Source of the DNA: an uncultured bacterium
GTDB lineage: Bacteria; DUMJ01
Reading direction: 5' to 3'
Assembly: GCA_937958695.1 (NCBI GenBank)
Contig: CALGNK010000003.1
Location: 1,912 to 65,911 of the forward strand
DNA: 64,000 bases
The notes beneath the pieces are model-generated. The model was not told where the DNA came from, searched no databases, and was given only the letters and a program-made list of their open reading frames with translations. Within the stretch, counting starts at the first letter, position 1. The number at the start of each line of letters is the position of its first letter. The translations under genes and the position numbers were made by a program. Shown piece by piece: positions 2,242 through 24,660 of the stretch.

Positions 2242-2287
2242 TAAAAACCATCTCCCTTCTTAGATTTAAACCAAAGGAAAATATATC

Positions 2288-3325
2288 TTAAACGTAAATT
2301 TCCATTCCTTTAAGAGCTAAATTCTCAGCTAGATGACAACTAACATAATGTTCAGAACTGATGGATCTTAGGGAAGGTTGCTCTTCCTTACATATATCCT
2401 TTGCATATCTACATCTAACATGAAAGACACATCCAGTAGGTAAATTGGCTGGATCAGGAGGATCCCCAGTCAATATAGACCTTCCTTTACGTCTTCCAGA
2501 TACTGTCCTAGGGACTGCACTTAAAAGAGCCTCTGTATATGGATGTAACGGATGTGTTAGGAGCTCATCTCTAGGAGCTACCTCTACCAATCTTCCAGCG
2601 TACATAACAGCTATTCTATCTGCCATATATCGCACTACACTAATATCATGACTAATAAATAGATAAGTTATAGCAAATTGTTCTTGAAGGTCTTTGAGTA
2701 GGTTCAGAATTTGAGCCTGTATAGAAACATCCAGTGCCGATACAGGCTCATCGCATACTATAAACTTAGGTTTTAGAATTAAAGCCCTAGCAATACAAAT
2801 ACGCTGTCTTTGCCCACCACTAAAACTATGTGGATACCTCCTTATATCTTCTTTCCTCAAGCCAACCTGTTGAAGTGTCTCCACAACTTGATCTACCAAT
2901 TCATGCTTACTAGAGACCAGGCCATTGATTAGCAAAGGATCTCCAACATTCTCTAAAACAGTCATACGCTCATTTAAAGATGAAAATGGGTCTTGAAATA
3001 TGATCTGCATGTTTCTTCGGAATTTTCTTAATTCTTCGCCTTCTAATTCTGTAAGATTTACTATCTTATCTCCATCCTTAAACAATATCTGTCCATCGGT
3101 AGGGTCATATAGTCTTATCATAGTTCTCCCCAAGGTACTTTTACCAGAACCGCTCTCACCTACTAATCCTAGGGTTTCCCTCTCTTCTATCTCCAGTGTA
3201 ACATCATCTACTGCCCTCACATAACCAACCAACTTACGCAGAAAACCTCTCTGTATAGGAAAGTACTTTTTTAGATTTTTTACAGATATAAGAAAGTTAG
3301 AAGTATTTTTATCTAATATCTCCAT
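2288..3325 (-). CDS. oligopeptide/dipeptide-type ABC transporter ATP-binding protein (OppF/DppF-like)
   Basis: Walker A GESGSGKST, signature LSGGQRQR, Walker B IVCDEPVSALD, and the C-terminal Opp-type extension. Confidence 0.85.
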   Translation of the reverse strand: MEILDKNTSNFLISVKNLKKYFPIQRGFLRKLVGYVRAVDDVTLEIEERETLGLVGESGSGKSTLGRTMIRLYDPTDGQILFKDGDKIVNLTELEGEELRKFRRNMQIIFQDPFSSLNERMTVLENVGDPLLINGLVSSKHELVDQVVETLQQVGLRKEDIRRYPHSFSGGQRQRICIARALILKPKFIVCDEPVSALDVSIQAQILNLLKDLQEQFAITYLFISHDISVVRYMADRIAVMYAGRLVEVAPRDELLTHPLHPYTEALLSAVPRTVSGRRKGRSILTGDPPDPANLPTGCVFHVRCRYAKDICKEEQPSLRSISSEHYVSCHLAENLALKGMEIYV

Positions 3326-3327
3326 CT

Positions 3328-4353
3328 CTATACCTCCACCTTTTGATATATTAAACAGCGTACTTTATGCCCATTCCCAACATCTATAAGGTCTGGAGAA
3401 GTAACATTACAGATACCTCTTATAGCATTTTCACACCTAGGATGAAATGAGCAACCTTCCGGTATTTGATAAGAACTAGGGACATTTCCATAGATAGGAA
3501 CTAACCGCTCCAATTTCCCCTCCACTTTAGGAATAGATCTAAACAAGGCAACGGTATAAGGATGAAGCGGATGACTGAAAATTTCTTCCTTTTTCCCAAA
3601 TTCTACTATCTTACCAAGATACATAACCGCTATATCATCTGCTATCTCAGAAACAACAGCTAAATTATGGGTTATGAATATAATAGCAAGTTTCATATCT
3701 TCTTGTAGCTCCTGTAGCAAATCTAGAATCTGAGCTTGGACAGTCACATCTACAGCAGTTGTAGGCTCATCGGCTATAAGTAATCTAGGATAACAAGAAA
3801 GAGCCATAGCTATCATAGCACGTTGTCTCATCCCACCACTAAGCTGGAACGGATATGTATCAATCGTCCTCTCTGGTCTAGGAATTCCCACTCTTCTCAA
3901 AAATTCAATCGCTCTTTCTCTTGCCTCTTTCTTATCTATATTTTCATGAGTAAGAATAGCTTCTATTATCTGATCTCCTATAGTATACATAGGAGAAAAA
4001 GCTGTCATAGGCTCCTGGAAGACCATACCAATCTCTTTTCCTCTAATATCCCTCATCTCCTTACCCTTCGGATCTAACTTAGTTATCTCTACAATTTCTA
4101 GCTCATTATTTTTAAGTCTATAAAGTTTAATACTACCGTCTACAATCTTCCCAGGTGGTGACTGAATAAGTCTCATTATGGTATGAACAGTAACAGACTT
4201 GCCACATCCACTTTCTCCTATAATCCCCAAGGTTTTACCTCTATCTACACTAAAATCTACCCCATCAACAGCCTTAACTATTCCTATATCAAGATAAAAA
4301 TATGTCTTCAAATTACTTACTTCTATGACTCTCTCGGTTAACTCTAGATTCAT
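3328..4353 (-). CDS. oligopeptide/dipeptide-type ABC transporter ATP-binding protein (OppD/DppD-like)
   Basis: Walker A GESGCGKSV, signature LSGGMRQR, Walker B LIADEPTTAVD. Confidence 0.85.
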   Translation of the reverse strand: MNLELTERVIEVSNLKTYFYLDIGIVKAVDGVDFSVDRGKTLGIIGESGCGKSVTVHTIMRLIQSPPGKIVDGSIKLYRLKNNELEIVEITKLDPKGKEMRDIRGKEIGMVFQEPMTAFSPMYTIGDQIIEAILTHENIDKKEARERAIEFLRRVGIPRPERTIDTYPFQLSGGMRQRAMIAMALSCYPRLLIADEPTTAVDVTVQAQILDLLQELQEDMKLAIIFITHNLAVVSEIADDIAVMYLGKIVEFGKKEEIFSHPLHPYTVALFRSIPKVEGKLERLVPIYGNVPSSYQIPEGCSFHPRCENAIRGICNVTSPDLIDVGNGHKVRCLIYQKVEV

Positions 4354-4365
4354 ACCATTTTCTCC

Positions 4366-5475
4366 TTAAAACGAGATAGAATAAGGGTCTACTGCATCAC
4401 GTAGCCCATCGCCTATGAAATTAAACATTAACACTGTTATTACAACAAAAAGACCTGGGAAAAGTTGCCAAGGTCTTTGAGCTAGGATAGTAAGGTCAGG
4501 GACATCACGAAGCAATACACCCCAACTGATAGCAGGAGGCTGAAGACCTAATCCTAAAAAGCTTAAAGATGTCTCGCCTAAAATCATACCAGGAATCGCT
4601 AGTGTAATATTTACAATAAGGTAACTAAAGAAATTTGGAAACATATATTTAATAATGATACGACTTTCTTTGGCTCCAGCAGCTCTAGCTGCTAAAACAA
4701 ACTCTTCTTCTCTAAGAGATAGAAATCTACCACGAACAACTCTAGCTAAGCCTGTCCAGCCAATGGTAGCAAGGACTAAGGTAATAGCAAAATAAACCTT
4801 GGTAATTGGCCAATTCTTTGGGATAGCGGCTGCAAGGGTCATCCAAAGAGGTATTGTTGGAATAGAACTTAGGACTTCGATTATTCTCTGGATTATCTCA
4901 TCTGTAGTACCACCAAAATATCCAGAAATGCCTCCTAACAAACACCCAAGGATAAAACTTATAGCTATACCACCAAAACCTATAAATAGAGAGATTCTTC
5001 CACCATAAACTGTCCTAGAAAACAAATCACGTCCTAATCGATCAGTTCCAAAAAGTAATATATAGGCTCCCTCATCAACCCCAAAAAGCTTAACATTCAT
5101 TGGTATAAATCCTAAAAGTTTATAGGGCTCGCTCTTAACTAGAAAACGAACATAGAACTTCTGGCTCTTATCCTCAACAAATACTACCCTATAGGTATAA
5201 GGGTCAACCTTTCTAGTCAATCTATATACAAATGGACGGCTTAATCCTTCTTCTCTAGTATAAAAATATATACGAGTTGGAGGTGCATCTTCATAACCAA
5301 CTAACCTAAGAGTAGGATCATAAGGAACTATGAAATCTGCAAATATAGCGAAAAAATAGAGTAATCCTAAGATTATCATACCTAAAACTGCCAACTTATG
5401 CTTCTTAAATCTCCACCAAATCAGTTTTCCCTGCGAAGCATATAATAACTCTTCTGCCCTGTTAGCTTTCGCCAT
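4366..5475 (-). CDS. ABC transporter permease (OppC/DppC-like)
   Basis: Multi-pass hydrophobic protein with the typical OppC N-terminal extension. It lies in an operon with the OppB/D/F homologs. Confidence 0.8.
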   Translation of the reverse strand: MAKANRAEELLYASQGKLIWWRFKKHKLAVLGMIILGLLYFFAIFADFIVPYDPTLRLVGYEDAPPTRIYFYTREEGLSRPFVYRLTRKVDPYTYRVVFVEDKSQKFYVRFLVKSEPYKLLGFIPMNVKLFGVDEGAYILLFGTDRLGRDLFSRTVYGGRISLFIGFGGIAISFILGCLLGGISGYFGGTTDEIIQRIIEVLSSIPTIPLWMTLAAAIPKNWPITKVYFAITLVLATIGWTGLARVVRGRFLSLREEEFVLAARAAGAKESRIIIKYMFPNFFSYLIVNITLAIPGMILGETSLSFLGLGLQPPAISWGVLLRDVPDLTILAQRPWQLFPGLFVVITVLMFNFIGDGLRDAVDPYSISF

Positions 5476-5478
5476 AAA

Positions 5479-6480
5479 TTAGCCTCCTTCCCTCGCTCCG
5501 TATCTTACTCTTGGGTCTAGCCAGGCAAGTAGTAAATCTGAAATAAACATCCCTATAACAGTTAGAGTGCCAAGTATAAGAACTATTGAACCAGCTAAGT
5601 ACATATCTTGGGCCAAGCTAGCTGTAAGTAGCAAAGGACCTATAGTTTGCAAATTAAGGACGATACCCACTACACTTTCACCTGAAACTAAAGCAGGTAA
5701 TAACCAACCAATAGTACTTATTGTAGGGCTCACTGCTACTCTTAATGGATATTTAATAAGCACTTTATATTCTGGAAGTCCTTTAGCCCTAGCAGTAGTA
5801 ACATAAAGTTTTCTAATCTCATCTAGCATCATAGCTCTTATAACACGTACTAAACCCGCTGTTCCAGCCATACCTACTACTATTACAGGGAGCCATATGT
5901 TTCTCAACATATCTATTAATTTAGCAAGAGACCAGGGCTGATTTTGAAATTCCAATGAAAATATCCCTATAACAGCATGACCAGTAAATTTGTATAAGAA
6001 CCAAATAGCTGTTAAAGCCAAAAGAAATCCTGGCATAGAAATTCCCAAGAAACTAAGAAAAGTAAAGATGTGGTCAAAAGGAGAATATTGATGAGTTGCA
6101 GAATAGATTCCAACAGGAAAGGCTACTATCCAAGTAAAAAGGAGACTTAATAAAGAAATAGTCAATGTTGCAGATAATCGTTCCTTTATAAGCTCTATAA
6201 CTGGTCTATTCCATGAAAATGAAGTTCCAAAATTACCATTTAAAATAATATTTTTTATCCACATAAAATATTGGACATATATTGGACGATCTAGGCCATA
6301 CTGACGGGTAAGAGTTTCTATTATAGTTTGATTGATCTCTACTCCAGAAGCTTGCAACCGCATAATATAGGTAGTCAAAAAATCTCCAGGTGGTAATTGA
6401 ATAACAACAAAGGCTATTACCGAAATTAAGAAAAGTTCAGGGATAATAATCATTAATCGACGGATAATATAATTTAGCAT
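5479..6480 (-). CDS. ABC transporter permease (OppB/DppB-like)
   Basis: 333 aa with about six transmembrane segments and the BPD-transport-type conserved region. It is adjacent to OppC/D/F. Confidence 0.8.
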   Translation of the reverse strand: MLNYIIRRLMIIIPELFLISVIAFVVIQLPPGDFLTTYIMRLQASGVEINQTIIETLTRQYGLDRPIYVQYFMWIKNIILNGNFGTSFSWNRPVIELIKERLSATLTISLLSLLFTWIVAFPVGIYSATHQYSPFDHIFTFLSFLGISMPGFLLALTAIWFLYKFTGHAVIGIFSLEFQNQPWSLAKLIDMLRNIWLPVIVVGMAGTAGLVRVIRAMMLDEIRKLYVTTARAKGLPEYKVLIKYPLRVAVSPTISTIGWLLPALVSGESVVGIVLNLQTIGPLLLTASLAQDMYLAGSIVLILGTLTVIGMFISDLLLAWLDPRVRYGAREGG

Positions 6481-6546
6481 CTCTCCATTCTTCCTCCTAA
6501 TAAAGTTTAAGAGGTACCTCCTTTAAAGGAGGTACCTCATTTTTTA

Positions 6547-8460
6547 TTACTTAAAGAATACCTGCTCTGCTGCAAACTGAGCTGCTGAGGCTCTTCCCTT
6601 TTTAGGCCAATTACCAAGATTAAATGGAACAATCATCGGATTAACTGCCTGCCCTACAAGAGGAAACATTGGGACAAGTTCTCTTATACGCTTAGCAAAT
6701 TTCTTTTCCCATAACTCTGCTCTCTGAGTAGCAGCATTAATAGTTGCTTGTTCTTCACCTAGCTTATAAAGCTCTTCTATCCACTCTGGTGGTCTTTCTC
6801 CCTCTTTTCCACCAGTTGCATACCAGAGATTCCAGAGAGGACTGCCCCAACCTACACGCGTAAATGGTCTAAAATCGGAGTGTAGATAAGGCCAATTAAC
6901 ATCATCAAGCCAATCTATAGTAGCTTTAATCTGATTGGCATTGTGCATTTCGCCCAATAAAGTAGTTGTTACCTGCTTCATCGTGGCTTTGATACCAACT
7001 TTTTGGATATACTCAACCAAAAGCTGGACGCATCTCTCCCAGTATCCTCCTTGTGGAGCATAAACTATAGGAAATTCAAAGGTCTTTCCATCTGGACCTA
7101 AACGCCAACCATCAGGATCACGTTTACTCATTCCCATCTCATCTAAGAGTTTATTAGCTTTTTGAAGATTAAATTCTGGATCAAACCAACGAGAATTCTT
7201 AGCCATTCCTAGATAGAGGATATCAGCTAATTGCTTACGATCTATCGCATAACTGATTGCCCTTCTAAATCTAACATCATTAGTAACCTTACGCCATACC
7301 GGATCAGCATTTCCATAGTTAATGAAAAGAGCTATGGGAGCATTATGAGACATTAAATTAAGATCTATTCTTGCACCTATCTTTTGTTCGTTTTCTCGAT
7401 ATAAAGCTACCTTATCCCAGTCTATCATATCTCTGTTAAAGTTAACCTTTCCACTCAAGATAGTCATTGGTAGATTGGCTGGATCAGTAACTATAATAGA
7501 CTCATATCTGTCTACATAAGGCAATTGGTTACCTGCAGTATCAACCTTATAGTAATATGGATTACGCTCAAAAGCCATAATACCAGTTGGAGAATCTACT
7601 CTAACCCAAGGTCCTAATGTTGGGAATCCTATGGCTCTTCTCTCACAAACAGCCCACCAAGGAACATCTTTAAGTTGGAAGAGTCTCCACCATTCCTGAT
7701 CTGAGTATCCATACTCCTTCAAAAGAGGCCTTATTTTCTCTATAGGGGTATACTTTATATGAAACTGCTTTAAATAATGACTTGGTTTCAATAACATATG
7801 ATAGCCACCCCATAGGGCGCCCAAACCAATCACTCTAAGAAATCGTCCATATGGCTTGTCAAATTCTATCCTAAATGTATACTTATCAATAATCTTAAGC
7901 TTCATCGGAGTGCCACCGGGAGCACCTTGACTTCTATAATCTGCTGGGAATATGGGAGTTATCTCTTTGTTAAGAAGCACATCTTGATAAGCAAATCTTA
8001 CATCTTCGGTGGTTACAGGAGTTCCATCAGACCATTTTAAGCCTCTGCGTATTCGCAGTGTAAAAATCTTATTATCCGGACTTACTCTAAACTCTGCTGC
8101 AACATTCCCCATAAGCGGTTTAGTATAATGTGCTGGAGTAAAAAGCCAATTCTCCATGCAGGCATCACGCAAGTTCCAGTCAAGATTAGGATTTAAACAT
8201 ACTGAACGTAGTACTCCTCCATATTTTCCCACTTCCCAGTCAGGAAGATCATCTTTATGCACTAACATCCCTGGGCCAATTACTAGTGGTTCTTCTGGTA
8301 ATCTTTGTTCAACTGGAGGAAGCTTTCCTGCTTTTACTAACTCTGCCAACATTGGTGCTTCGTTATATTTCTTTTGGGAGAATGAAATCGGCACACTCCC
8401 TAGAATTAAACCTAATACCAAACTCAAAACCACTACACTCAACACTAACTTCCTTAACAT
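6547..8460 (-). CDS. ABC transporter substrate-binding protein, family 5 (Opp/Dpp type); likely binds oligosaccharides
   Basis: 637 aa with an N-terminal signal/lipoprotein-like hydrophobic segment. It is the first gene of a permease/ATPase operon that ends in two GH29 genes, and a strong RBS (AGGAGGAGG) lies upstream. Confidence 0.8.
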   Translation of the reverse strand: MLRKLVLSVVVLSLVLGLILGSVPISFSQKKYNEAPMLAELVKAGKLPPVEQRLPEEPLVIGPGMLVHKDDLPDWEVGKYGGVLRSVCLNPNLDWNLRDACMENWLFTPAHYTKPLMGNVAAEFRVSPDNKIFTLRIRRGLKWSDGTPVTTEDVRFAYQDVLLNKEITPIFPADYRSQGAPGGTPMKLKIIDKYTFRIEFDKPYGRFLRVIGLGALWGGYHMLLKPSHYLKQFHIKYTPIEKIRPLLKEYGYSDQEWWRLFQLKDVPWWAVCERRAIGFPTLGPWVRVDSPTGIMAFERNPYYYKVDTAGNQLPYVDRYESIIVTDPANLPMTILSGKVNFNRDMIDWDKVALYRENEQKIGARIDLNLMSHNAPIALFINYGNADPVWRKVTNDVRFRRAISYAIDRKQLADILYLGMAKNSRWFDPEFNLQKANKLLDEMGMSKRDPDGWRLGPDGKTFEFPIVYAPQGGYWERCVQLLVEYIQKVGIKATMKQVTTTLLGEMHNANQIKATIDWLDDVNWPYLHSDFRPFTRVGWGSPLWNLWYATGGKEGERPPEWIEELYKLGEEQATINAATQRAELWEKKFAKRIRELVPMFPLVGQAVNPMIVPFNLGNWPKKGRASAAQFAAEQVFFK

Positions 8461-8572
8461 TCTTCTTTACCTCCTCCTTTTAAAAATTTTTCTAAAACTT
8501 TCAGCTTACTCTACCAACCTCAATCTACTTATCCCCCTTAAGAACTTTTAAATCTACTAAACCTAGCTTTCT

Positions 8573-9601
8573 CTATTCCACCACCTCCTTTACCAACTTC
8601 TCACCAGCTGACTTCCTTATTATTAGCTCGGGTTGGAGGATTACCTTCCTCCTCTCTCTTACCCTGTCCTTATCTTCTATCCTTCTTATTAATAGCTCTG
8701 CTGCTATTACCCCCATCGAGTATGCAGGTTGTGTTACTACTGTAAAAAATGGATAAACCTGTGATAGGCTCTCTATATCATCAAATGATACTAATGCTAT
8801 GTCTTCAGGTACATTTAATCCACTATCCCTTATAGCCATCATTGCCCCTACAGCTATGAAGTTATTTCCACCAAATATTGCAGTCGGCGGATTATCTAAA
8901 CTCAGTAAATCTTTGGTAACCTTATATCCATCTTCCCTTGAATATCTAGCAAATCTTATTAACTCTTCATCTATCGTAACCCCTGCCTCTATTAATGCCC
9001 TCTTATATCCTTCTACCCTATCTTCAGCCGTTGAGATATTTTTACTCCCTACTATTATCCCTATTCTTCTATGCCCTAAATCTAACAGATGCTTTGTAAG
9101 TAGGTATGCTCCGTATACACTGTCTCCCTTTACTATGTCTAGGTCTTCTAATCCATCTACTTCTCTATCTATAAGAACTATAGGGATATTCCTTAAAAGT
9201 ATAGACTTAAGAGGCCCTCTCCTTCCACTTGCTGATGCTAGTATCACCCCATCTACTCGCTTCCTAGCTAGTAACTCTAAATATAAGACCTCTTTATCTG
9301 GATCCTCATCTGTGTTACAAAATATTACACTGAATTGACTTTTCATAGCTGTATCCTCTACCCCTCTTGCTAATGTGGTAAAGAAAGGATTTGTTATATC
9401 TGTTATAACTAATCCTATGGTCCTTGTCTTCTGAAGGACAAAGCTTCTAGCTAGGGAATTTGGAACATAACCAAGTTCTTCTATAGCCTTGAGAACCCTT
9501 TCTCTTGTCTCAGGTTTTACATCCTTCTTGCCATTTATCACCCTAGAAACAGTCATAGCTGAAACTCCAGCCTTTTTAGCTACATCATATATGGTTGGCA
9601 T
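8573..9601 (-). CDS. LacI-family transcriptional regulator
   Basis: N-terminal HTH MPTIYDVAKKAGVSAMTVSRVINGK, followed by a periplasmic-binding-fold effector domain. The ORF-track start at 9637 is a TTG; the ATG at 9601 (MPTIYD...) gives the canonical LacI N-terminus. Confidence 0.85.
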   Translation of the reverse strand: MPTIYDVAKKAGVSAMTVSRVINGKKDVKPETRERVLKAIEELGYVPNSLARSFVLQKTRTIGLVITDITNPFFTTLARGVEDTAMKSQFSVIFCNTDEDPDKEVLYLELLARKRVDGVILASASGRRGPLKSILLRNIPIVLIDREVDGLEDLDIVKGDSVYGAYLLTKHLLDLGHRRIGIIVGSKNISTAEDRVEGYKRALIEAGVTIDEELIRFARYSREDGYKVTKDLLSLDNPPTAIFGGNNFIAVGAMMAIRDSGLNVPEDIALVSFDDIESLSQVYPFFTVVTQPAYSMGVIAAELLIRRIEDKDRVRERRKVILQPELIIRKSAGEKLVKEVVE

Positions 9602-9623
9602 TCTCTTCCCTCTCATTCTATAC

Positions 9624-9635
9624 GTTACTAGTAAC
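9624..9635. promoter_or_regulatory. perfect 12-bp palindrome GTTACTAGTAAC, candidate LacI-family operator
   Basis: The sequence reads the same on both strands. It sits 23 nt upstream of the preferred lacI-family start (9601), in the divergent lacI/fucU intergenic region. Confidence 0.3.
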
Positions 9636-9947
9636 AATATAGCAAAAAATTTTTATATGTCAAGAGTAATCTGTAATCAAAATTATTCCTTTCTAAAGAC
9701 TTCTAAACCCCTGCTCCGTAATCAAATTAGACCTCCTAGTAAAGTGCTGACAAAACTTTTAGGCATTGCTAAGAATATTAGGCACCAGAAGAACCAGCTT
9801 TTTGAAAAATTTTCCCGGCCTATATAGAAATTGTTTAAAATACGTGGTTCTCCTGGTATTTGTGGTACTATATAGGTCATCTATAGGTAAATAAAGTGAT
9901 TACAGGTCAGTTTTAAAATCTGCTTCACTAAATATAGTATAGAGTGT

Positions 9948-9953
9948 TATAAT
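9948..9953 (+). promoter_or_regulatory. candidate sigma70 -10 box (TATAAT) for the fucU operon
   Basis: An exact TATAAT lies 45 nt upstream of the fucU ATG, with a weak -35-like TTCACT 17 bp upstream. The RBS GAGGAGG lies at 9984-9990. Confidence 0.25.
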
Positions 9954-9997
9954 AGCTTTTAGTGATCTTTTATATTGTTATATGAGGAGGGTTGTTT

Positions 9998-10417
9998 ATG
10001 CTTAAAGGAATTTCTCCTTTAATATCACCAGAATTACTTAAAATTTTATGCGAAATGGGTCACGGAGATGAAATTCTCTTAGCAGATGCCAATTACCCTT
10101 CAGAATCGTGTGGACCAAAGGTGGTAAGGGCAGATGGACTAGATATTCCATCCCTCTTAGAGGCAATTTTAAAACTCTTTCCTCTAGATACCTACGTAGA
10201 AGAAAATGTGATCTTTATGTCTCCAGATAAAGAAAAACCTCCAATATGGGAAAGGTATGAAGAGATTCTTAAAGCTTCTGGAGAGGATGTAAGAATAGGT
10301 ACACTACCAAGATTCGATTTCTACGATAGGGCTAGAAAGGCTTATGCAATAGTAGCTACAGGAGAGAAAGCTCTCTATGCTAACATAATACTAAAAAAAG
10401 GAGTAATAAGTGAATGA
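9998..10417 (+). CDS. fucU: L-fucose mutarotase (RbsD/FucU family)
   Basis: MLKGISPLISPELLKILCEMGHGDEILLADANYP...AYAIVATGEKALYANIILKKGV aligns nearly residue-for-residue with E. coli FucU as I recall it. The ATG at 9998 is preferred over the TTG at 9992. Its stop overlaps the next start in an ATGA. Confidence 0.9.
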   Translation: MLKGISPLISPELLKILCEMGHGDEILLADANYPSESCGPKVVRADGLDIPSLLEAILKLFPLDTYVEENVIFMSPDKEKPPIWERYEEILKASGEDVRIGTLPRFDFYDRARKAYAIVATGEKALYANIILKKGVISE

Positions 10418-11220
10418 AGGTATTAGGGATAGTAGGTAGTCCTCACAAAGATGGAATGACAGCTAGTCTAGTAAAGCGAGCTTTGGATGGGGCAAGAGAA
10501 AAGGGTGCAGAAACTGAATTGATGTATCTTATAGATGAGAACCTAAGATATTGCGAAGGATGTGGTGGAGGATGTTTTCGAACGTATAAATGTATCTAGG
10601 ATGAAGATGCTACATCAAGGAGTCAAAGGGTAGATTCCTGCGATGCTTTAATCTTTGGAGTACCTGTATATTGCTGGCAGATAAATGGACTATCTAGTCT
10701 ATTCATAGATAAACAGAGATTCAGTACTGGATCAATTATTGGACCTTCATCAAATACTAGATCAGCATTAGGAATTACTGTAGCAGGAGGCAGTGGAACT
10801 GGGTGCATATTAGCACTTCAGACTCTATATAAATATTTCTTCAATTGGAGTTTTAGAGGTATAGATCCGCTACCTGTTACTAGATTTAACTATAATAAGG
10901 CATTAGAACTAGCAAAAATTTATGGAGGGCATCTCGTTCAGGTAGCAAGAGAAAAGAAACCTTTCTCTAGTTTTGGGGAGGCAATAGCATATTTTGAAAC
11001 ATTAGAATACATGAATTATACGCCTATAGATGAGTTATATTTTATAGTTAAGAGTATTCTGGAAAACATAGATGAGGAGATAGCTAATGAATTAAAAGAG
11101 GAATTAACTTTAGCTGAAAAGGATTTAAATGCCGGAAATAGGCTTAATGGAGCCATCCATTTAGATAATGCTTACAGGATAGGAGTTAGACTCTGGAATA
11201 TGAGTAAAGATAAATCCTAA
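10414..11220 (+). pseudogene. iron-sulfur flavoprotein (Isf)-like NAD(P)H-dependent FMN reductase, interrupted by one in-frame TAG at 10597-10599
   Basis: I checked frame 1 codon by codon: it is open from 10414 to 11220 except for a TAG at 10597-10599. Upstream of the TAG are the flavodoxin-like N-terminus and the Isf cysteine cluster CEGCGGGC...C. Downstream it continues DEDATSRSQRVDSCDALIFGVPVYCWQINGLSSLFIDKQ, the FMN-reductase motif. The two ORF-track pieces (10414-10599 and 11011-11220) belong to this one frame. Confidence 0.6.
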
Positions 11221-11234
11221 GGAGGTGTGCAAGT

Positions 11235-12293
11235 ATGGAAGGTTTTAACAACCTCTTATTAGCATTATGGGGGATACATCTATATTTTCCTGCAAAAACA
11301 AGATCTATATCTGCTGAAAATCCAACTGGAGAAGTAAGTGGAGGGGCAAAAGAGATCCCAGATCAAAATAATCCAGCCTCAAATCTAGGTAGGGGATGGA
11401 AGGTTAGACCTTGCATAACACTACCTGCGGGCTCTAATACAGTATTGGCAGATATAGAAGGTCCGGCAATCATAAACCATATATGGCTTACTGTAACAGA
11501 AAGGGCTTATAGGAATTGTATCTTAAGGTTCTACTGGGATAATGAGGTATCCCCATCGATAGAGGTTCCTCTAGGGGACTTCTTTGCCAATGGACATGGG
11601 TTAAGATATAACGTAAATTCTGTCCCCATAGCGGTGAATCCATCAGGAGGGTTCAATTCTTATTGGCCTATGCCATTTAGAAAACATTGTAAGATAACTA
11701 TCGAAAATCAATTCTGGGAAGACATTCGTGGTTTCTACTATCAAATTACGTATTCCCTTACTGAGGTTCCCGATAGTGCACTCTATTTCCACGCACAGTG
11801 GAGAAGGTCTATGACCACTAGAGAAAAGCCTGAGCATGTCATACTAGAAGGAGTAAAGGGTAAAGGACATTATGTAGGAACATTTTTAGCCTGGACACAG
11901 TTGTCTGACGGTTGGTGGGGAGAAGGTGAGATAAAATTCTATATAGATGGTGATACAGAATATCCAACGATATGTGGAACTGGAACAGAGGACTACTTTG
12001 GAGGAGCCTGGGGCTTTGGGAATGAAACATTTTCTGCTCCATTCTCAGGGTATCCTTTATACCGTAAAGAGCCAGGGACGGTTCCAAAGCATGGACTATA
12101 CAGGTGGCATATACTAGATCCAATCAGGTTTGAAAAAGACCTAAGAGTTACTATTCAGGCTTTAGGCTGGTGGCCTAATGGAAAGTTCCAACCTTTAACA
12201 GATGATATAGCCTCGGTTGCCTATTGGTATCAGACTGAGCCACATCAAGAATTTCCGAAACTACCATCTATAGAGGAACGTTGGTCTAGATAG
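11235..12293 (+). CDS. DUF2961 / GH172-like protein (putative glycoside hydrolase); tentative
   Basis: 352 aa containing SAENPTG and GTGTEDYFGGAWGF-type motifs. I assign it to DUF2961 from memory without an alignment. The location next to fucU and the fucosidase operon supports a carbohydrate role. Confidence 0.4.
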   Translation: MEGFNNLLLALWGIHLYFPAKTRSISAENPTGEVSGGAKEIPDQNNPASNLGRGWKVRPCITLPAGSNTVLADIEGPAIINHIWLTVTERAYRNCILRFYWDNEVSPSIEVPLGDFFANGHGLRYNVNSVPIAVNPSGGFNSYWPMPFRKHCKITIENQFWEDIRGFYYQITYSLTEVPDSALYFHAQWRRSMTTREKPEHVILEGVKGKGHYVGTFLAWTQLSDGWWGEGEIKFYIDGDTEYPTICGTGTEDYFGGAWGFGNETFSAPFSGYPLYRKEPGTVPKHGLYRWHILDPIRFEKDLRVTIQALGWWPNGKFQPLTDDIASVAYWYQTEPHQEFPKLPSIEERWSR

Positions 12294-13044
12294 AAAACCT
12301 GCTAGGGGGAGTATCCCCCCTAGCCTCTTTAAATGGGTTTCCTTTTCCGTTAAACCAACCCCTTTCAATCCAATACTTTTTATCCATAGAAAGCTCTGTT
12401 TCAACTTTTTTCATAATCATCCTTCTTATGTAAAACATTAGCAGAATATAAAGATACGGATAGTGTATTTTACCTGATATTACTTCTCGGTAAAACTTAT
12501 TAGCTTTCCTTTTGATCTTTGCAACAATTTTTTCTTTTTTCTCTGCTCTCATAATATCCCAATCTTCTCCAAATGTTGCAAAACTAAACGAATATACCCG
12601 ATTTACTCCCCAAAATTTTAGACTAGTCGATATAGTTTTAATAGCCTCCTTTGCTCCTGCTCCAACTGTAGAAGCAATAATAAAAGCCTTCTTTCGGAAC
12701 ATTTCAGGTCTAGGACGATGAACTATAAATAAAAAAGCAAAGTGGTCTAAGAACGACTTCATACAACCACTAGTCTGAAGGACATATACAGGGGTGGTAA
12801 ATATAAATGCATCTGCTAACAACATTTGTTCTAAAATAGGCTTTGTATACTTATAATCTGGGCATTTATCTTCTCCATTTATAAAGCAGGAAGCGCACCC
12901 ACGGCAAAAGTTCGGCATATCCTTAGGAAGAAAATACTCAATAAATTCTACTCTGCCAAGTTTACTTATTTCATCTTTAAAAACTTGAGTAGCTTTATAA
13001 GAGTTTCCTCTTCGAGGACTTCCATATACAATTACTATCTTCAT
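12286..13044 (-). CDS. iron-sulfur flavoprotein-like NAD(P)H-dependent FMN reductase (flavodoxin fold)
   Basis: MKIVIVYGSPRRGNSY...CRGCASCFINGEDKC (CX2CX2CX7C)...ADAFIFTTPVYV. It is an intact paralog of the interrupted gene at 10414-11220. Confidence 0.7.
   Translation of the reverse strand: MKIVIVYGSPRRGNSYKATQVFKDEISKLGRVEFIEYFLPKDMPNFCRGCASCFINGEDKCPDYKYTKPILEQMLLADAFIFTTPVYVLQTSGCMKSFLDHFAFLFIVHRPRPEMFRKKAFIIASTVGAGAKEAIKTISTSLKFWGVNRVYSFSFATFGEDWDIMRAEKKEKIVAKIKRKANKFYREVISGKIHYPYLYILLMFYIRRMIMKKVETELSMDKKYWIERGWFNGKGNPFKEARGDTPPSRFSI
12302..12325. terminator. GC-rich hairpin (CTAGGGGG-agtat-CCCCCCTAG), likely bidirectional terminator at the convergent overlap
   Basis: An 8-bp perfect stem lies immediately after the stop of the DUF2961 gene and is followed by CTCTTT. 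On the other strand it overlaps the last codons of the convergent Isf-like gene. Confidence 0.4.
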
Positions 13045-13051
13045 ATGATAC

Positions 13052-13870
13052 CTACTTTCTAAGATTAAACAAATCTTTCAAGTCACTATATATTATTTCT
13101 GCTATATCTGGATCCTTAAAGAATGCAGTTCCAATCTGAACAGCACTTGCCCCAAGGTTTAGATATTCTAACACATCAGAAGTAGAAAATACTCCTCCTG
13201 ATGCCATTATAGGTACTTTAACTTTATCTACTATCTCCTTTAAAAGTCTTACATATATAGGCTTTATTACAGGCCCTGAGAGTCCTCCATTAATAGATTG
13301 GTAGGCTGGAAATGTATTGAAAAGTGTCAAGCCATCTGCCCCACCATCTATCGCCGGTTTTATATATAACAAAGGATCATCTTTAGGGGCTAACTTCACA
13401 AAGATTATTTTGTTATAAACATTCCTCAAAGCACTTGTTGCTTCAAAGATACTCTTAGGGTTATTAGACCAATTTTCACCTTTAACATTTGGACATGAAA
13501 GATTCAGTTCTATCCCTACTATATAATCTAATCTGTCTATAATCTCTCCAAGTTTCGATATCTCATCTAAAGTACTACCAGTTATACTAGCCATTACAGG
13601 AATATTCAAAGACCTATAGAAAGGCTCTAATCTTAGCCACTCATAGACACCTTCATTCTCAAGCCCTATAGAATTTATAAGACCACCTATAGTCTCTTCT
13701 ATTCTAGGGGGAGAATTTCCCCTTTTAGGATTTAGAGTTACAGTCTTTGGGATAAATAATCCTAAACCTCTAGTAGAAAATATCTCAAAGAATTCCTTCC
13801 CCCATCCGAGTGGTCCTGATGCTGTCACTAGAGGTGTTCTTAGCTCTATACCACATAGACTCCAACTCAT
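13052..13870 (-). CDS. pyrD: dihydroorotate dehydrogenase, catalytic subunit (class 1B)
   Basis: The TIM-barrel DHOD motifs GIELRTPLVTASG and NLSCPN, plus the C-terminal FMN-binding GGV...IGTA. It overlaps pyrK by 1 nt. Confidence 0.8.
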   Translation of the reverse strand: MSWSLCGIELRTPLVTASGPLGWGKEFFEIFSTRGLGLFIPKTVTLNPKRGNSPPRIEETIGGLINSIGLENEGVYEWLRLEPFYRSLNIPVMASITGSTLDEISKLGEIIDRLDYIVGIELNLSCPNVKGENWSNNPKSIFEATSALRNVYNKIIFVKLAPKDDPLLYIKPAIDGGADGLTLFNTFPAYQSINGGLSGPVIKPIYVRLLKEIVDKVKVPIMASGGVFSTSDVLEYLNLGASAVQIGTAFFKDPDIAEIIYSDLKDLFNLRK

Positions 13871-14586
13871 TAGAAAATCTCCTTCAAATTAAATACTGGG
13901 CCGTCTTTACATACTCTCTTGTACTCTCCATACTTATTTTCTATAACACATCCTCTACAGGCTCCAAAGCCACAGGCTATTTTAGACTCTAAGGATATCT
14001 CGGTTGGAATATCTATCCTTATATTTTTTAGCATCTCTATAGGGCCACAGGCATATACTCTGTCATAGTTTGTATCTATATACTCTGTAACTAATCCCTT
14101 CTTACCAAGAGAACCATCTTCTGTTACAACTTCTATATCTCCTATACTTGCATATCTTGAAAGTAGCTCTTTACCCCAGAAGTTCCCTGTCTGGGCTCCA
14201 AGCAAGAACTTGACATCTCCTCTTAGTCTTTTACCCAAGTAATATAATGGGGCCATACCACTTCCGCCACCTATAAGGAGAAATCTCCCCTGAGAGATGG
14301 AAAAGCCATTTCCTAACGGTCCAAAGATATTTAAACTGTATCCAATTCTTCTTTCTGAAAGCCACTTAGTACCCCTACCAACCACCCTATAGAGAAAGCT
14401 TAATCTATCTTCATCCACATCAAATATGCTAAAAGCCCTTCTAAGGATGACATCTTCTCTATCTATTCTTATAAGAAAAAACTGACCTGGTTCTATGGAT
14501 ATACTTTCTCCTATAGATACAGTAACGAGAAATAATTCACCAACAGGTATATTCTCTATAATCTCACCGTTATATATCTTTGGCAT
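13870..14586 (-). CDS. pyrK: dihydroorotate dehydrogenase electron-transfer subunit (FAD / 2Fe-2S)
   Basis: Ferredoxin-reductase-like fold with the C-terminal CGFGACRGCV...C 2Fe-2S motif. It lies in an operon with pyrD. Confidence 0.8.
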   Translation of the reverse strand: MPKIYNGEIIENIPVGELFLVTVSIGESISIEPGQFFLIRIDREDVILRRAFSIFDVDEDRLSFLYRVVGRGTKWLSERRIGYSLNIFGPLGNGFSISQGRFLLIGGGSGMAPLYYLGKRLRGDVKFLLGAQTGNFWGKELLSRYASIGDIEVVTEDGSLGKKGLVTEYIDTNYDRVYACGPIEMLKNIRIDIPTEISLESKIACGFGACRGCVIENKYGEYKRVCKDGPVFNLKEIF

Positions 14587-15844
14587 AGACCACTCTTCCG
14601 TTTACCATTGTCAAAATAGGAAAACCATACAGTTCATACCCATCATATGGAGAATTTTTACCCTTAGATACAAAGTTACTCACATCTACTATCTCTTTGC
14701 GGTTAGGGTCAAATATTACAATATCTGCACTCTTTCCAACAACCAAATCTCCACTATCTAAACCCAATAATCTAGCAGGGTTGTAAGAGAGTTTCTTTAC
14801 CATCTCAAGAGTAGAGATATGTCCTGCCTTAACCAAAAATGTATAACATAATGGCAACATTATCTCTACACTAGAAATTCCAAATGGATCATTGAGAAGG
14901 TCTAAACCCAAAGTTTTTCTTGGCGCATGGTCACTAGCAATAACATCTATAGACTCATCTATCAATCCTTCAATTAGTGCAAATCTATCTACTTCTTTTC
15001 TAAGCGGAGGATTAACCTTAAGTCCTATTCTTCTCTCTAGTAGTAATTCATCAGTTAATATAAAATGATGTGGAGAAACCTCGCAGGTAACATTTACTCC
15101 GGAGGATTTTGCACGTCTTATAATATCTAAGGAATCCTTAAGGGAGATATGAGCTATATGGATCCTAGCCCCTATATCTCTAGCGATGAGAACATCTCTA
15201 GCTACCGCTAATACTTCTGCTAGTGGAGGTATGCCAGGAAGGCCAAGTTTTAGAGATGCTATCCCTTCGTTTACTACGCCATCTAACGAAACTCTCTTAT
15301 CCTCGCAGTGAGATATTGGCAGTAATCCATACATATTGGCTGTCTCTAGGACAGACTTCATAACTAGCGAATCCTCTACCCAATTCCCATCATCTGAGAC
15401 CGCTACAATTCCTTCATACTTCATTCTATCATAAGGAGCGATAATCTTACCTTCTCTTCCTACAGTCATAGCACCAATCGGATAGACCTTCACTTTACCG
15501 TATTTCTCTGCGGAAAGCATTACATATCTTACTATAGTAGGACTATCAATACAGGGATTAGTATTTGGCATACAGCAAGCGGTAGTTACACCGCCTTTGG
15601 CACATGCCATAGTTCCGGTATATATCCCTTCTTCTGCTCCATCCGGGTCTCTGAGATGAACATGCATGTCTACTATGCCAGGAATTACGTAACATCCATC
15701 TGCATCTATAACCTCTAATCCTTCGGTAGGTATATTACCTTCTATCTGGGTTATAATTCCATCCTCAATAAGGATATCTCTTTTACCAACAAAATTCTCC
15801 CCTGGGATAACAACCTTTCCATTTTTGATAACGGTCCTATTCAT
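14570..15844 (-). CDS. pyrC: dihydroorotase (amidohydrolase family)
   Basis: DMHVHLRDPDG metal-binding motif in a 424-aa class I DHOase-like protein next to pyrK/pyrD. Confidence 0.75.
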   Translation of the reverse strand: MNRTVIKNGKVVIPGENFVGKRDILIEDGIITQIEGNIPTEGLEVIDADGCYVIPGIVDMHVHLRDPDGAEEGIYTGTMACAKGGVTTACCMPNTNPCIDSPTIVRYVMLSAEKYGKVKVYPIGAMTVGREGKIIAPYDRMKYEGIVAVSDDGNWVEDSLVMKSVLETANMYGLLPISHCEDKRVSLDGVVNEGIASLKLGLPGIPPLAEVLAVARDVLIARDIGARIHIAHISLKDSLDIIRRAKSSGVNVTCEVSPHHFILTDELLLERRIGLKVNPPLRKEVDRFALIEGLIDESIDVIASDHAPRKTLGLDLLNDPFGISSVEIMLPLCYTFLVKAGHISTLEMVKKLSYNPARLLGLDSGDLVVGKSADIVIFDPNRKEIVDVSNFVSKGKNSPYDGYELYGFPILTMVNGRVVYAKDI

Positions 15845-17370
15845 CTTCCTCCTAATCTCCTTATCTCCTGATCTATAATATGGTCTATATCATTGGTTGC
15901 ATAGAAGATCTTAGTATAAATCTTCTCGAAAAGCTCTTTATATAAAGGAGCCAGATTTTTGTCTGGTTCTACCGTCATCTTCACTTTGTATGTCCTATCT
16001 ACAACCTCATCCTCATTTTTAAATAGACCAGCACCCAGGGCACCCAAAAAGGCTGCTCCCATAGCAGTTCCTTCTGTAACTTGAGGAACTTCTATTACCT
16101 TATCTATAACGGTAGCCTTTATCTTTAACCAGGTTAAGTTCTTGGTTCCTCCACCTATACCTATAACCTTTTCTACAGTCCCAAACTCTCCTAGGGTATT
16201 AAATGCTAACCTAGCTTCAAAAGAAAGTCCTTCTAAGACGCTTCTAGCAAAGTCAGCAGGGGTATGCTCCCTTTTTAATCCTAAAAAAACTCCTCTTGCC
16301 TGAGGGTCTCTTTTCGGAACACTACTACCTAAGAAGTGCGGAACACAGAAAAGACCATTACTACCAACAGGAGATTGTTCAGCCAAAGAAGAGAGGGCAT
16401 CAAACAGATTCTTACCCTTATCTACATCGTTTAATGAACTCATAAGTTTAGCTGTCCATTCTATAAGTCCCCCAGAAAAAGGTATCGCTACATGTATATA
16501 ATACTTTCCTTTAGCAACGTGTGCACCTACAGTTATATCCGATCTCTCCTTTACCTCAAGATGTAACGGAGGAGTCTCTGTACTTAGCTGAAAACTCTCA
16601 GCTGTTCCCATAGAATCAAGGCCAATACCTTTACGGAAACATCCATTTATAAAAGCCCCACATACATGGTCATGTCCACCCACAACTACCACAGTATCTG
16701 GTCTTACTCCAAGTTCTTCAGGATTTCTTACTTTACCCAGTAATGTTCCGCTAGGGACAGGCTTAGGGAGTATATCAATTGGAATCTCTGCCTTTTCTAA
16801 TATGGTCTTTGACCACTGTAATGTCTTCAGATCAAAAGCCATTATTCTTGAAGCCTGCGAATAATCTGTAGCTATCTCACCAGAGAGCATATATGTTATA
16901 AAATCAGATACGGGAAGCCACATTTTAGCTTTTTCATACACATCTCTTTTATACTGTTTCATCCAAAGTATCTTGTTTATACCGTAAATAGGTTGTACCC
17001 TTAAACCAGTAATGCTATATATGGTCTGAGGGTCTATCCTTTGTAAAAGCCAATCCAGCTGTTCTACGGTCCTTTCATCATACCAAGCTATAGCCGGGAA
17101 GAGAATCCTTCCATTTTCATCTATAGGGACCATAGATTCCGCTACACTAGTAGCAGATATGCTAGCAACATTACCATTTACCTCGGCAGAAACCTTTCTT
17201 ATTGAGTCTTTAATAATATCCCATATCTTATCTGGAATAAAATAATGATGTTTCCCTTCTATTAATACAGGCGTAGGATTAGAAACAGAAGAAACAATAT
17301 TACCATCTAAATCAAACAGTATTACCTTTATGTTGGTGGTTCCAGCATCAATACCAATACAATATTCCAC
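15841..17370 (-). CDS. FGGY-family carbohydrate kinase (xylulokinase/fuculokinase-like)
   Basis: IGIDAGTTNIK N-terminal actin-fold motif and GGG(T/A)KN C-terminal motif. The ORF-track GTG at 17379 abuts the SD GAGGAGG, so the in-frame GTG at 17370 (MEYCIGID...) has proper spacing. Confidence 0.7.
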   Translation of the reverse strand: MEYCIGIDAGTTNIKVILFDLDGNIVSSVSNPTPVLIEGKHHYFIPDKIWDIIKDSIRKVSAEVNGNVASISATSVAESMVPIDENGRILFPAIAWYDERTVEQLDWLLQRIDPQTIYSITGLRVQPIYGINKILWMKQYKRDVYEKAKMWLPVSDFITYMLSGEIATDYSQASRIMAFDLKTLQWSKTILEKAEIPIDILPKPVPSGTLLGKVRNPEELGVRPDTVVVVGGHDHVCGAFINGCFRKGIGLDSMGTAESFQLSTETPPLHLEVKERSDITVGAHVAKGKYYIHVAIPFSGGLIEWTAKLMSSLNDVDKGKNLFDALSSLAEQSPVGSNGLFCVPHFLGSSVPKRDPQARGVFLGLKREHTPADFARSVLEGLSFEARLAFNTLGEFGTVEKVIGIGGGTKNLTWLKIKATVIDKVIEVPQVTEGTAMGAAFLGALGAGLFKNEDEVVDRTYKVKMTVEPDKNLAPLYKELFEKIYTKIFYATNDIDHIIDQEIRRLGGR

Positions 17371-17390
17371 CAAACTCACCTCCTCTAATT

Positions 17391-17918
17391 TTATGGTAAA
17401 GTCTCTATTATAAACTCATGATTGGTATAGACACATATGTCGGCAGCTATCGAGAGAGCCTCCCTCAAGATCTCTTCGCAAGATAGATCCGTATGTTTCA
17501 GTAGGGCTCTTGCTGCAGCCAACGCATAGTTACCACCTGAACCTATAGCTATGATACCATCATCAGGTTCTATCACATCTCCTGTACCAGAGATAAGAAG
17601 CAAGTTATTTATATCGGCAACTACAAGTAATGCATCTAATCTCCTTAAAGCCCTATCTAACCTCCATTCCTTGGCTAGTTCTACCGCTGCCCTAGCGAGG
17701 TTTCCTCCATACTCATTTAACTTTCCTTCAAACCTATCTAGAAGAGCTATACCATCCGCAGCAGAACCGGCAAAACCAACCAATACCTTACCGTCTCTTA
17801 TCTTTCTCACCTTTCTAGCCCTTTTCTTAATAATAGTCTGTCCAGCAGTAACCTGTCCATCTCCCCCCATAGCAACAGTATTACCTTTCTTTATCGCTAA
17901 TATAGTTGTATGTCTCAT
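17391..17918 (-). CDS. hslV: ATP-dependent protease subunit HslV
   Basis: [24 protein letters not shown]...[14 protein letters not shown] aligns with HslV/CodW. A short propeptide precedes the catalytic Thr. Confidence 0.85.
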
Positions 17919-17922
17919 AGTC

Positions 17923-20900
17923 TTACCACACTCCTTTTACCCTAGACCCCCTCTCATCCTTCTCAACCTCAATCCTATAAGGAAATCTACTTGCAAGTTC
18001 CTTATTGTGAGTTATTATTCCAATCATAATGCCAGAATTTTCCAATTCTGCTAGAGCAGATACCACATTGTCTAAGCCTGTATCATCCAAAGCACCAAAA
18101 CCTTCATCTATAAAAAGACAATCAACAGAACGCTTTCCCCTAATCTCTTCTGCTATAGCTATAGCCAGTGATATAGAGGCTAAGAAGCTCTCTCCTCCAG
18201 AAAGCGAATAGGTCTTACGTCTCTGGTCTGGATACCAATTATCATTTATAACTATATCGGCCGATTCATCTGAAGCAAGAGAAAATGTATATCTACCCTG
18301 TGTAAGAGAACTTAACTGAACAGAAGCCCTATCTATAATACTTTCCATAACTTCTCTCATAAGGAACTCAGGAAACTTATTTTCACTTAAAGCATCATCA
18401 ATTATACTATAATAACTTAAACTCTTTTCTAATTCCCTCTTTTTTGCAGATAAATCCTCTACTAGAAAAAGATTCTCTTTAGCAATCTTGACTTGATTTT
18501 CTAAAGACCCAATCTCCCTAGTTACCAAAGCTATCTTCTCTTCTAACTCTTTCAGAGAGTTTAGCTTTGAGTTATATAGGTCTTTTATCAGATCTAACTC
18601 CTCTAGTTTATCAGGGTCCCTTCCCAATTTTATAATAGCCTCACGGAGCCTCGATATCTCATCTTTAATAAGATTCTGCTTCGCTGTAAATTCATTAAAT
18701 TCCTTTCTTATTCTCTCTATATATAACCTATCAACCTTAATCTTATTAAGCTCATCTAAAGAGAGACCTATAGATTGGCACCGAGACTCAATTTCTTTTC
18801 TTCTAGCATCTATCTCTTCCTTTAAAAGGATTAGTTTATCTCTTAATTCTGCAATCTCTAAATCTATCTTTTCTATTCTAGACCTACCTGTTTCTATCGA
18901 AGTCTTGCTTGTCAAGATAATCTTATTAGCGGAATCTAAAAGCTTTTGGTACTTATTCTTTAACTCTTGAGATTCTCTTAAAAAGTTACGAGTTAAGAAA
19001 TCTTCCCATTTTATATTAGTCTTAGAAATTGCATCTAACATTAATCTTTCTTGCCTTTCTAATTCTAGAGACTCTTTCTCTAACTGGGTCCTAAGAGAGT
19101 TAATAGCAGTAACTTCTTTATCAAAAATAGCTCTCTTTTCATTAACCTTTGTAACCTTAATTGTCCTTTCTTTCTCTGCATTATTTATTAAACTTTCCAA
19201 TTCTTCTTTTTCTTTCTCAATTTCAGAACTTATAAATACATAATCAATAACATAACCCCTACCAAAGTGCTTCTCTAAGATATTGCGAATATGTACTTCT
19301 ATTTTGTCTATCTCTCCTTCAAGATTTCTTATAGAATCGCTTATAAGTCTTAATTCTTCATCTATCTGCTTCGATCTTGACTCTAGACCCGAAAACCTTC
19401 TAAAGAATTCCTGCCAGATCTTCTTTTTTTCTTGATAAAGAGATAATAACTCATCTAGCTCCCTCTTATCTTTGACCTTCTGAGGCAGCTCCTTTATAGT
19501 ATTACCGCATATTGGGCAGGTATCACCTACAGATAAAGAATTGATTATTCTCTGTAGATGAGAATCCTCTATAAATCTTTCTAAACTATTCAGCTCATCA
19601 GTTAGCATATTGAGGGTATTCTCTATAGACCCTAGCTCTAGTTCTAAATCTTTTCTTTCCCCTTCTAACTTTATCTTCTTTTCTCTATATTCAGTTAATC
19701 CTTCTCTTTTGTTATTTAAGAGCTTTATCTCTTCTGCTATATTACTAAGCTCTTCCCAAACCTTAGACCTTTCCTCTAGCTTATCTTTTAATAATTTTAT
19801 CTTTTTATCACAAGCTTCAACCTCAGAGAGGATCTCCTTTATCTCTCTATCTAGCAAAAGTAACTCTTCCTCCCTGACTTTTATCTCCTCCCAAGCCTTA
19901 GTTATTCTTTTTTTATCAAATTCCAATGCTCTAATAGACTCAGCCAAAGGAGTAAGCTCTAATAAGGCTTCGGCATACTTAATATGTTCTAGATACTCCT
20001 CAACCTTCTTTTCTTCCACTTCTATAGTTTTACTCCAATTCTCTATATTTCTCTCTATCTCTAATCTTTCCTTTTTTAGAGATTCTACTCTGGACTTCTT
20101 GTCCGAAAGATCTTTAATACTATTTGAAAGAGGAATCGCATCAATCTGAATCTGATATATAATCTCTAATCTATCCGTCTTTTCCTTCTCTTTCCTCAGC
20201 CATTCTAATCTAGAAATAACATCTTGATAGTTCTTCTTAGCAGAGATTAGATTAGAAAAGAAGCTTATTGTATCCCTTAAGGACTCAACCTCTTTAGAAA
20301 TCTCCTGTCTATCTTTATCTAGATGTTTAAGTACATCCTCCTTTTCTCTTAAATCTTTTTCTAAAGCCCTTATGTATTCCTTGTTGTAAGATTTTAATTC
20401 TCCTTCCAATCTACTCGAGATAAATTGAATCTCTTTAGAGATATCTTTACACCTCTGGTTTGCAAGTCTCTTTACCTCTTTATAAACATCTAAGCCAAGA
20501 AGTTTTTGTAAGACCTGTCTTCTTTCTGAAAAAGCCTCACTGCTAGGAGGTTTAAGAAATCTATCTATCTGATTTTGAGGGAGAATCACTGTCCTAGTAA
20601 ATGTCTCATAATCCATGCCTAAAAGACTCTCTATTAGGGCATTTACCTCCCTATTTCTCTTGACACCAAGAGGTATAGTCTTATCATCCACAATCTCATA
20701 GATATTTGCCTGTTGCGACTTTCCTCTAACTAGTTCTCTTTTTACTAGAAATATCCTATCTCCAACCCTAAAACTAAGGGATAGAGAAAGCCTATTTGAA
20801 TTATGATTTATGATATCTTCTTCTGCACTTATCCTTCTTCCAGCATATCTAGGAATCTTACCATAAAGGGCATAGACTATTCCATCTAAAATAGACGACT

Positions 20901-24657: not shown

Positions 24658-24660
24658 CTC

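Follow-up and report, generated by a model that had tools for sequence, protein, structure and literature searches.

The question raised by this locus is whether a lone in-frame amber codon, lying in an otherwise intact gene, is a recent mutation, an error of sequencing or assembly, or a codon that is still decoded. The locus belongs to a 64,000-nucleotide stretch of DNA from an uncultured bacterium (GTDB lineage DUMJ01; contig CALGNK010000003.1), referred to below as the window, and consists of a 268-codon gene for a flavoprotein of the FMN_red type with four cysteines, at positions 10414 to 11220 of the forward strand, in which codon 62 (10597-10599) is TAG. It is very likely that this TAG is real and that a conserved flavoprotein gene has undergone a nonsense mutation of very recent date, confined to one strain or sample. 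This was the first option of the initial annotation, made from the sequence of the window; it is supported by a TGG at the same codon in near-identical genomes, by the derived state of the A that creates the stop and by the lack of decay downstream.

An intact frame on both sides of the stop

Translation of 10414-11220 (+) gives one frame of 268 sense positions closed by a TAA at 11218-11220, and confirms that the TAG at 10597-10599 is its sole internal stop, as first noticed. Upstream of the TAG, the N-terminal fragment (10414-10596, 61 codons) carries a GSPHKDG loop and the cysteine cluster CEGCGGGCFRTYKC, whose spacing is CX2CX3CX5C (C47, C50, C54 and C60; 10552-10593) and not CX2CX3CX4C as initially given. 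Downstream of it (10600-11220), the frame holds 206 sense codons and the TAA, with no second lesion; the intactness claimed for this part stands, while the 207 codons counted in it are reached only if the TAA is included. The program-made list of open reading frames (ORFs) splits the gene into two remnants, at 10414-10599 (61 residues) and 11011-11220 (69 residues), and the 61-residue call is also that of the source contig. The Pfam profile PF03358 (FMN_red) matches residues 1-143, across the stop (X at position 62), scoring 63.9 bits where the curated cut-off is 24, and intact 268-residue alleles exist (P0001 and P0122).

Codon 62 in related genomes

A Logan assembly of run ERR9287632 (L001) is 99.905% identical to the window over positions 9627-20103 (10477 bases), from which it differs by 10 substitutions, all of them transitions, and zero insertions or deletions. 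One of these substitutions falls at 10598, where the window has A and L001 has G, and codon 62 of L001 reads TGG. The same TGG is found in the ENA assembly ERZ6864471 (L002), which is 99.88% identical to the window over 12719 bases, and in a more distant Logan assembly (L003; 91.7% identity) of SRR16588181. Accession searches tied only this last run to a publication, which concerns the mining of enzymes from a hot-spring metagenome, and returned nothing for ERR92876xx or ERZ686xxxx. Among five further species, represented by GTDB genomes with 78-87% protein identity, codon 62 is TGG in three, AAG in one and AGA in one. The GTDB representatives do not include the species of the window itself, the best of them reaching 84-87% protein identity. 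The alignment of orthologs proposed at the outset as a check thus returns a sense codon throughout, and none of the eight related loci compared has TAG at this codon, which is found only in the window and in one near-identical assembly (L087, below). When L003 serves as the outgroup, A is the derived base at 10598 in the window lineage, and the change is a G-to-A transition that converts TGG (Trp) to TAG.

At the protein level, a 268-residue protein recovered by protein search (P0001) equals the window product at all 267 other residues and has tryptophan at position 62, as do P0122, P0123 and P0125. Across 20 homologs, position 62 is variable (W, K, R, L, S, H, N, Q, M or F), and the four cysteines are invariant. 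Because the same 268-residue protein, with W62, is encoded in an assembly that matches the window at 99.9% over 10.5 kb, the continuity of the frame across the TAG is, judged by sequence comparison, not that of a chance open frame.

Age of the stop and selection on the gene

The ratio of non-synonymous to synonymous substitution rates (dN/dS) is 0.06-0.08 in comparisons with the related loci L003, L009 and L007, for the whole gene and likewise for codons 63-268 alone, which points to strong, long-term purifying selection. Besides the nonsense change, a single synonymous change at 11001 is all that separates the window gene from the intact allele of L001; across the intact alleles, the part 3′ of the TAG differs by one or two bases, one synonymous and at most one a replacement. 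The low dN/dS and the retained arrangement of fucU, the flavoprotein gene and a glycoside hydrolase gene of family GH172 argue that the gene is functional in this lineage, and the stop would have arisen within a clade of about 0.1% divergence.

A gene inactivated long ago and now decaying would account for the presence of the stop, and for nothing further. The initial annotation had tied such an old pseudogene to a stop conserved in related strains and to a decaying downstream region; no relative has the TAG, and downstream the one or two base differences and a dN/dS of about 0.06 show no decay. Given also that genomes at 99.9% identity lack the stop, that A is derived, that the 206 codons 3′ of the TAG hold no second lesion and that codons 63-268 evolve as slowly as the whole gene, an old pseudogene can be regarded as ruled out.

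The TAG allele in a second assembly

The assembly that shares the TAG, L087, is a Logan assembly of run ERR9287625. It shows one mismatch to the window in 8468 bases (position 9814), carries ATC TAG GAT at the site and has the gene called as two pieces of 61 and 69 residues. It was located by exact look-up of the product of a neighbouring window gene, FMN_red2, which has K176, against R176 in the L001 and L002 alleles. Exact look-ups of the 61-residue and 69-residue fragments recovered no TAG-bearing contig, and that of a PyrK-like protein encoded further downstream gave a 4-kb contig that ends before the flavoprotein gene. The TAG allele is therefore known from the ERR9287625 assembly and the window contig only, and TGG from the ERR9287632 and ERZ6864471 assemblies. 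Near-clonal populations (99.88-99.99% identity to the window in L001, L002, L086 and L087) recur in ERR9287625, ERR9287632, ERZ6863514 and ERZ6864471, runs and assemblies whose accession numbers lie close together.

Since two assembly pipelines give the same TAG, an assembler or polishing artefact is removed as its source, and the assembly half of the sequencing or assembly error initially considered is weakened. None of the approximately 52 genes elsewhere in the window is broken, which indicates that the consensus quality is good. The remaining 14 differences between the window and L002 comprise seven synonymous changes, five replacements (K/R three times, V/L and S117P) and two intergenic changes, a spectrum that reads as real population variation filtered by selection.

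Mutation, artefact or decoding

Several points weigh against a real nonsense mutation that abolishes function. The window contig and L087 may share reads, in which case they are independent in assembler only; the A could still stem from reads of ERR9287625 that are systematically wrong at 10598 or that come from a mixed population; the search for suppressor machinery covered 64 kb of the genome; and the loss of function is deduced from the truncation. The first two of these points favour an artefact, in which TGG is the true codon of the organism and the A was introduced at 10598 by read errors, by DNA damage (G-to-A) or by a minority variant taken up by the assemblers. A single G-to-A transition is indeed also a product of deamination damage, and the nearest assemblies with TGG have G at this position. 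An artefact is nevertheless unlikely, as the same base emerges from two different assembly pipelines, the surrounding 8.5 kb are almost identical in the window and L087, the window as a whole has no other broken gene among some 52, and the other differences from L002 resemble real variation under selection.

It could also be supposed that the TAG is decoded, by pyrrolysine, an amber-suppressor tRNA or leaky readthrough, and that the full-length protein is still made. The perfectly intact frame 3′ of the stop would agree with this, and since position 62 tolerates many residues, the inserted one would probably be tolerated; the intact frame is, though, expected simply because the mutation is recent, and recency alone suffices. 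Decoding is very unlikely on several counts. Conspecific genomes at 99.9% identity have TGG, and TAG is absent from every relative compared. In the window, TAG often serves as a true stop, closing 15 of 52 genes, including the neighbouring genes for a LacI-family regulator, GH172 and FMN_red2. The only tRNA found in the 64-kb window by ARAGORN and Rfam is tRNA-Ser(TGA), with no tRNA-Pyl and no suppressor tRNA, and Pfam searches of the 52 window ORFs found no PylS, PylB, PylC or PylD and no methylamine methyltransferases in the 64 kb of genome covered. The two radical-SAM proteins of the window are one that adjoins LipB (LipA-like) and one with UPF0004 and TRAM domains (MiaB/RimO-like). Finally, the RNA 3′ of the TAG (127 nt from 10594) folds no better than shuffled sequences (z = -0.64). 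Within the window, the absence of pyl genes and suppressor tRNAs is what had been anticipated, and the readthrough or suppression put forward as one option finds no support in machinery, RNA structure or ortholog codons. Partial or full decoding by pyrrolysine machinery or an amber-suppressor tRNA with genes beyond the window is highly improbable; were it to occur, the TAG allele would still give the full-length flavoprotein, and a natural population with members at 99.9% identity would have been sampled in the midst of a switch from sense codon to TAG. The known pyrrolysine genes (mttB, mtbB, mtmB and a few others) resemble this one in that one in-frame TAG is all that interrupts them, but here the TAG is not conserved in orthologs, pyl machinery is absent from the window and TAG is a common stop.

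One other long same-frame TAG junction exists in the window, at 24661-24663 (-), between ORFs of 431 and 164 residues. It was rejected as a TAG-interrupted gene, as Pfam identifies two complete and unrelated proteins, PmbA/TldD and TPR. The region 24163-25956 (-) thus holds a PmbA/TldD gene followed in the same frame, 3 nt apart, by a TPR gene with a GTG start.

The allele, taken as a real and recent nonsense mutation, is an ordinary strain-level nonsense allele of an already known kind. Like other bacterial point-nonsense pseudogenes and strain-level null alleles, it combines a single transition and a premature stop with the absence of any other lesion, in a gene that near-identical genomes retain whole under purifying selection. 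No feature distinguishes it from these known cases, and it is unusual only in the clean assignment of its alleles to separate assemblies.

Expected consequences of the proposed mutation

The proposed sequence of events would begin with the single G-to-A transition at 10598, converting Trp62 to an amber codon, after which the 61-codon N-terminal fragment would be the only product expected from the TAG allele. This product would keep the first beta-strand, the GSPHKDG loop, one helix, the second strand and the cysteine segment, and termination would remove the helical C-terminal domain and all else that the model of the intact allele shows of the flavodoxin-like core. Between the TAG and codon 200 the frame contains neither ATG nor GTG nor TTG, and hence no useful re-initiation product is expected. 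The truncation would thus amount to a loss of function. Approximately 620 nt of untranslated mRNA upstream of the GH172 gene could moreover cause polarity, an effect that would be tempered by the strong Shine-Dalgarno sequence of GH172 itself. The loss would presumably be neutral or tolerated, and the paralog FMN_red2 might buffer it.

Affinities of the flavoprotein

Profile and predicted fold place the product of the interrupted gene in the FMN_red / flavodoxin-like reductase superfamily (PF03358; NQO1/NQO2, azoreductases, SsuE and WrbA-like proteins), with predicted binding of flavin mononucleotide (FMN) and predicted NAD(P)H-dependent reductase activity. An AlphaFold2 model of the intact allele (predicted local distance difference test, pLDDT, 92.2; predicted template modelling score, pTM, 0.91) shows a flavodoxin-like alpha/beta core, and Foldseek matches this model to NQO2, azoreductases, YLR011w and the flavone reductase FLR at expectation values (E) of 5e-8 to 5e-7 and a template modelling (TM) score of about 0.5. 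It differs from the superfamily by an inserted four-cysteine segment (CX2CX3CX5C), and from the matched structures by about 100 C-terminal residues that form a helical domain (helices within residues 160-266) outside their coverage.

The closest solved protein by sequence is FLR of Flavonifractor plautii (PDB 7D38-7D3B; PMC7862272). The match to 7D38 has an E of 8.8e-6 with the single sequence and 7.2e-12 with the family profile, and spans 100-107 positions at the N-terminus, the cysteine-rich segment among them. However, the alignment is limited to the N-terminal 40% of the protein, identity in the structural alignment is 17%, and the genomic context differs, being here a fucose/glycan operon; there is no evidence of flavone reduction.

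Isf, the prototype iron-sulfur flavoprotein from Methanosarcina thermophila, consists of one domain with about 190 residues. The present protein shares with it the FMN_red-type group and a compact four-cysteine cluster near residue 50, which could, judging from the cysteine pattern, bind a [4Fe-4S] cluster. The published Isf motif, as quoted in PMC3164229, is CX2CX2CX5-7C, which the CX2CX3CX5C of this protein does not match. In addition, the protein has 268 residues with an extra C-terminal domain of about 100 residues, in contrast to Isf. No chain named iron-sulfur flavoprotein was retrieved in PDB sequence searches to E = 1 or among the top 50 Foldseek matches, and these searches did not include a direct comparison with an Isf sequence. 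The cysteine spacing, the extra domain and the lack of an Isf structure among the matches leave the membership in the Isf family that was initially assigned unproven, and "Isf family" is better kept as a reasonable analogy.

The 268-residue architecture, which combines the FMN_red core and the four invariant cysteines with about 100 residues of helical C-terminal domain, defines a family of at least 200 proteins, with members in Anaerolineae, Bathyarchaeia, Poribacteria, Spirochaetia, Desulfobacterales and others. Zero members of this family are characterised, and the nearest solved relative is distant.

The operon and its surroundings

The flavoprotein gene is the second of three on the forward strand. 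The first gene of the operon, fucU (9998-10417), encodes an L-fucose mutarotase of the RbsD/FucU family (Pfam PF05025, 1e-46; NCBIfam PRK15420, 154.8 bits against a cut-off of 141) and is called with 139 residues in L001 and L002. According to the sequence and the ORF list, its TGA (10415-10417) overlaps the flavoprotein ATG (10414-10416) in an ATGA at 10414-10417 (+). The coupling to fucU had been placed at the stop of the flavoprotein gene; the overlap is at its start instead. The third gene (11235-12293, +) encodes the GH172 (DUF2961) glycoside hydrolase (Pfam PF11175, 8.5e-96; synteny in five species). Its Shine-Dalgarno sequence AAGGAGGTG lies at 11219-11227, after the flavoprotein stop, and its ATG is at 11235. 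The trio is syntenic in five related species (L006-L010), with the order flavoprotein-fucU-GH172 in L010. Upstream of fucU, a consensus scan places a putative promoter-like site, TTCACT-18-TATAAT with TG, at 9924-9953 (+), within the divergent intergenic region common to fucU and to the gene for the LacI-family regulator (8573-9637, -).

Further upstream lie genes for a GH29 alpha-L-fucosidase (973-2241) and an oligopeptide-type (Opp-type) ATP-binding cassette (ABC) transporter (2288-8460). Altogether, the fucosidase, transporter, regulator, fucU, flavoprotein and GH172 genes (973-12293) look like a fucoside/glycan utilisation locus. Within it, a redox flavoprotein is kept between a mutarotase and a glycosidase. 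At the left end, an open frame of 326 codons (1-978, -), just downstream of the fucosidase gene, leaves the window.

On the other strand, 1 kb from the interrupted gene, FMN_red2 (12286-13044, -) encodes a second FMN_red protein of 252 residues, a distant paralog with four cysteines and 25% identity to the interrupted protein. Its motif, CX2CX2CX7C, fits the published Isf motif better than that of the interrupted gene, and FMN_red2 is absent from the syntenic locus L009. The GH172 gene (+, ending at 12293) and FMN_red2 (-, ending at 12286) are convergent, with an 8-bp tail-to-tail overlap. A G+C-rich hairpin with a 10-bp stem (12301-12324) is located within the last codons of FMN_red2, just past the GH172 stop, and may serve as a shared terminator of the two genes. 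Beyond FMN_red2, tightly overlapping frames at 13052-17379 (-) encode a PyrD-like DHO_dh, a PyrK-like Fe-S/FAD subunit, an amidohydrolase (dihydroorotase/dihydropyrimidinase-like) and an FGGY sugar kinase. This cluster may be a reductive catabolic module rather than a pathway of pyrimidine biosynthesis.

Implications

For annotation, one pseudogene or disrupted gene at 10414-11220 should take the place of the two small ORFs (61 and 69 residues), with the intact 268-residue allele existing in sister populations. The locus is a neat case of a loss-of-function allele that differs between near-identical genomes from different metagenome runs, and it carries the lesson that an in-frame TAG followed by an intact frame is no evidence of recoding when near-identical genomes carry TGG. 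Beyond annotation, its significance is small. Independently of the TAG, a widespread uncharacterised flavoprotein family encoded beside fucU and GH172 offers a modest lead.
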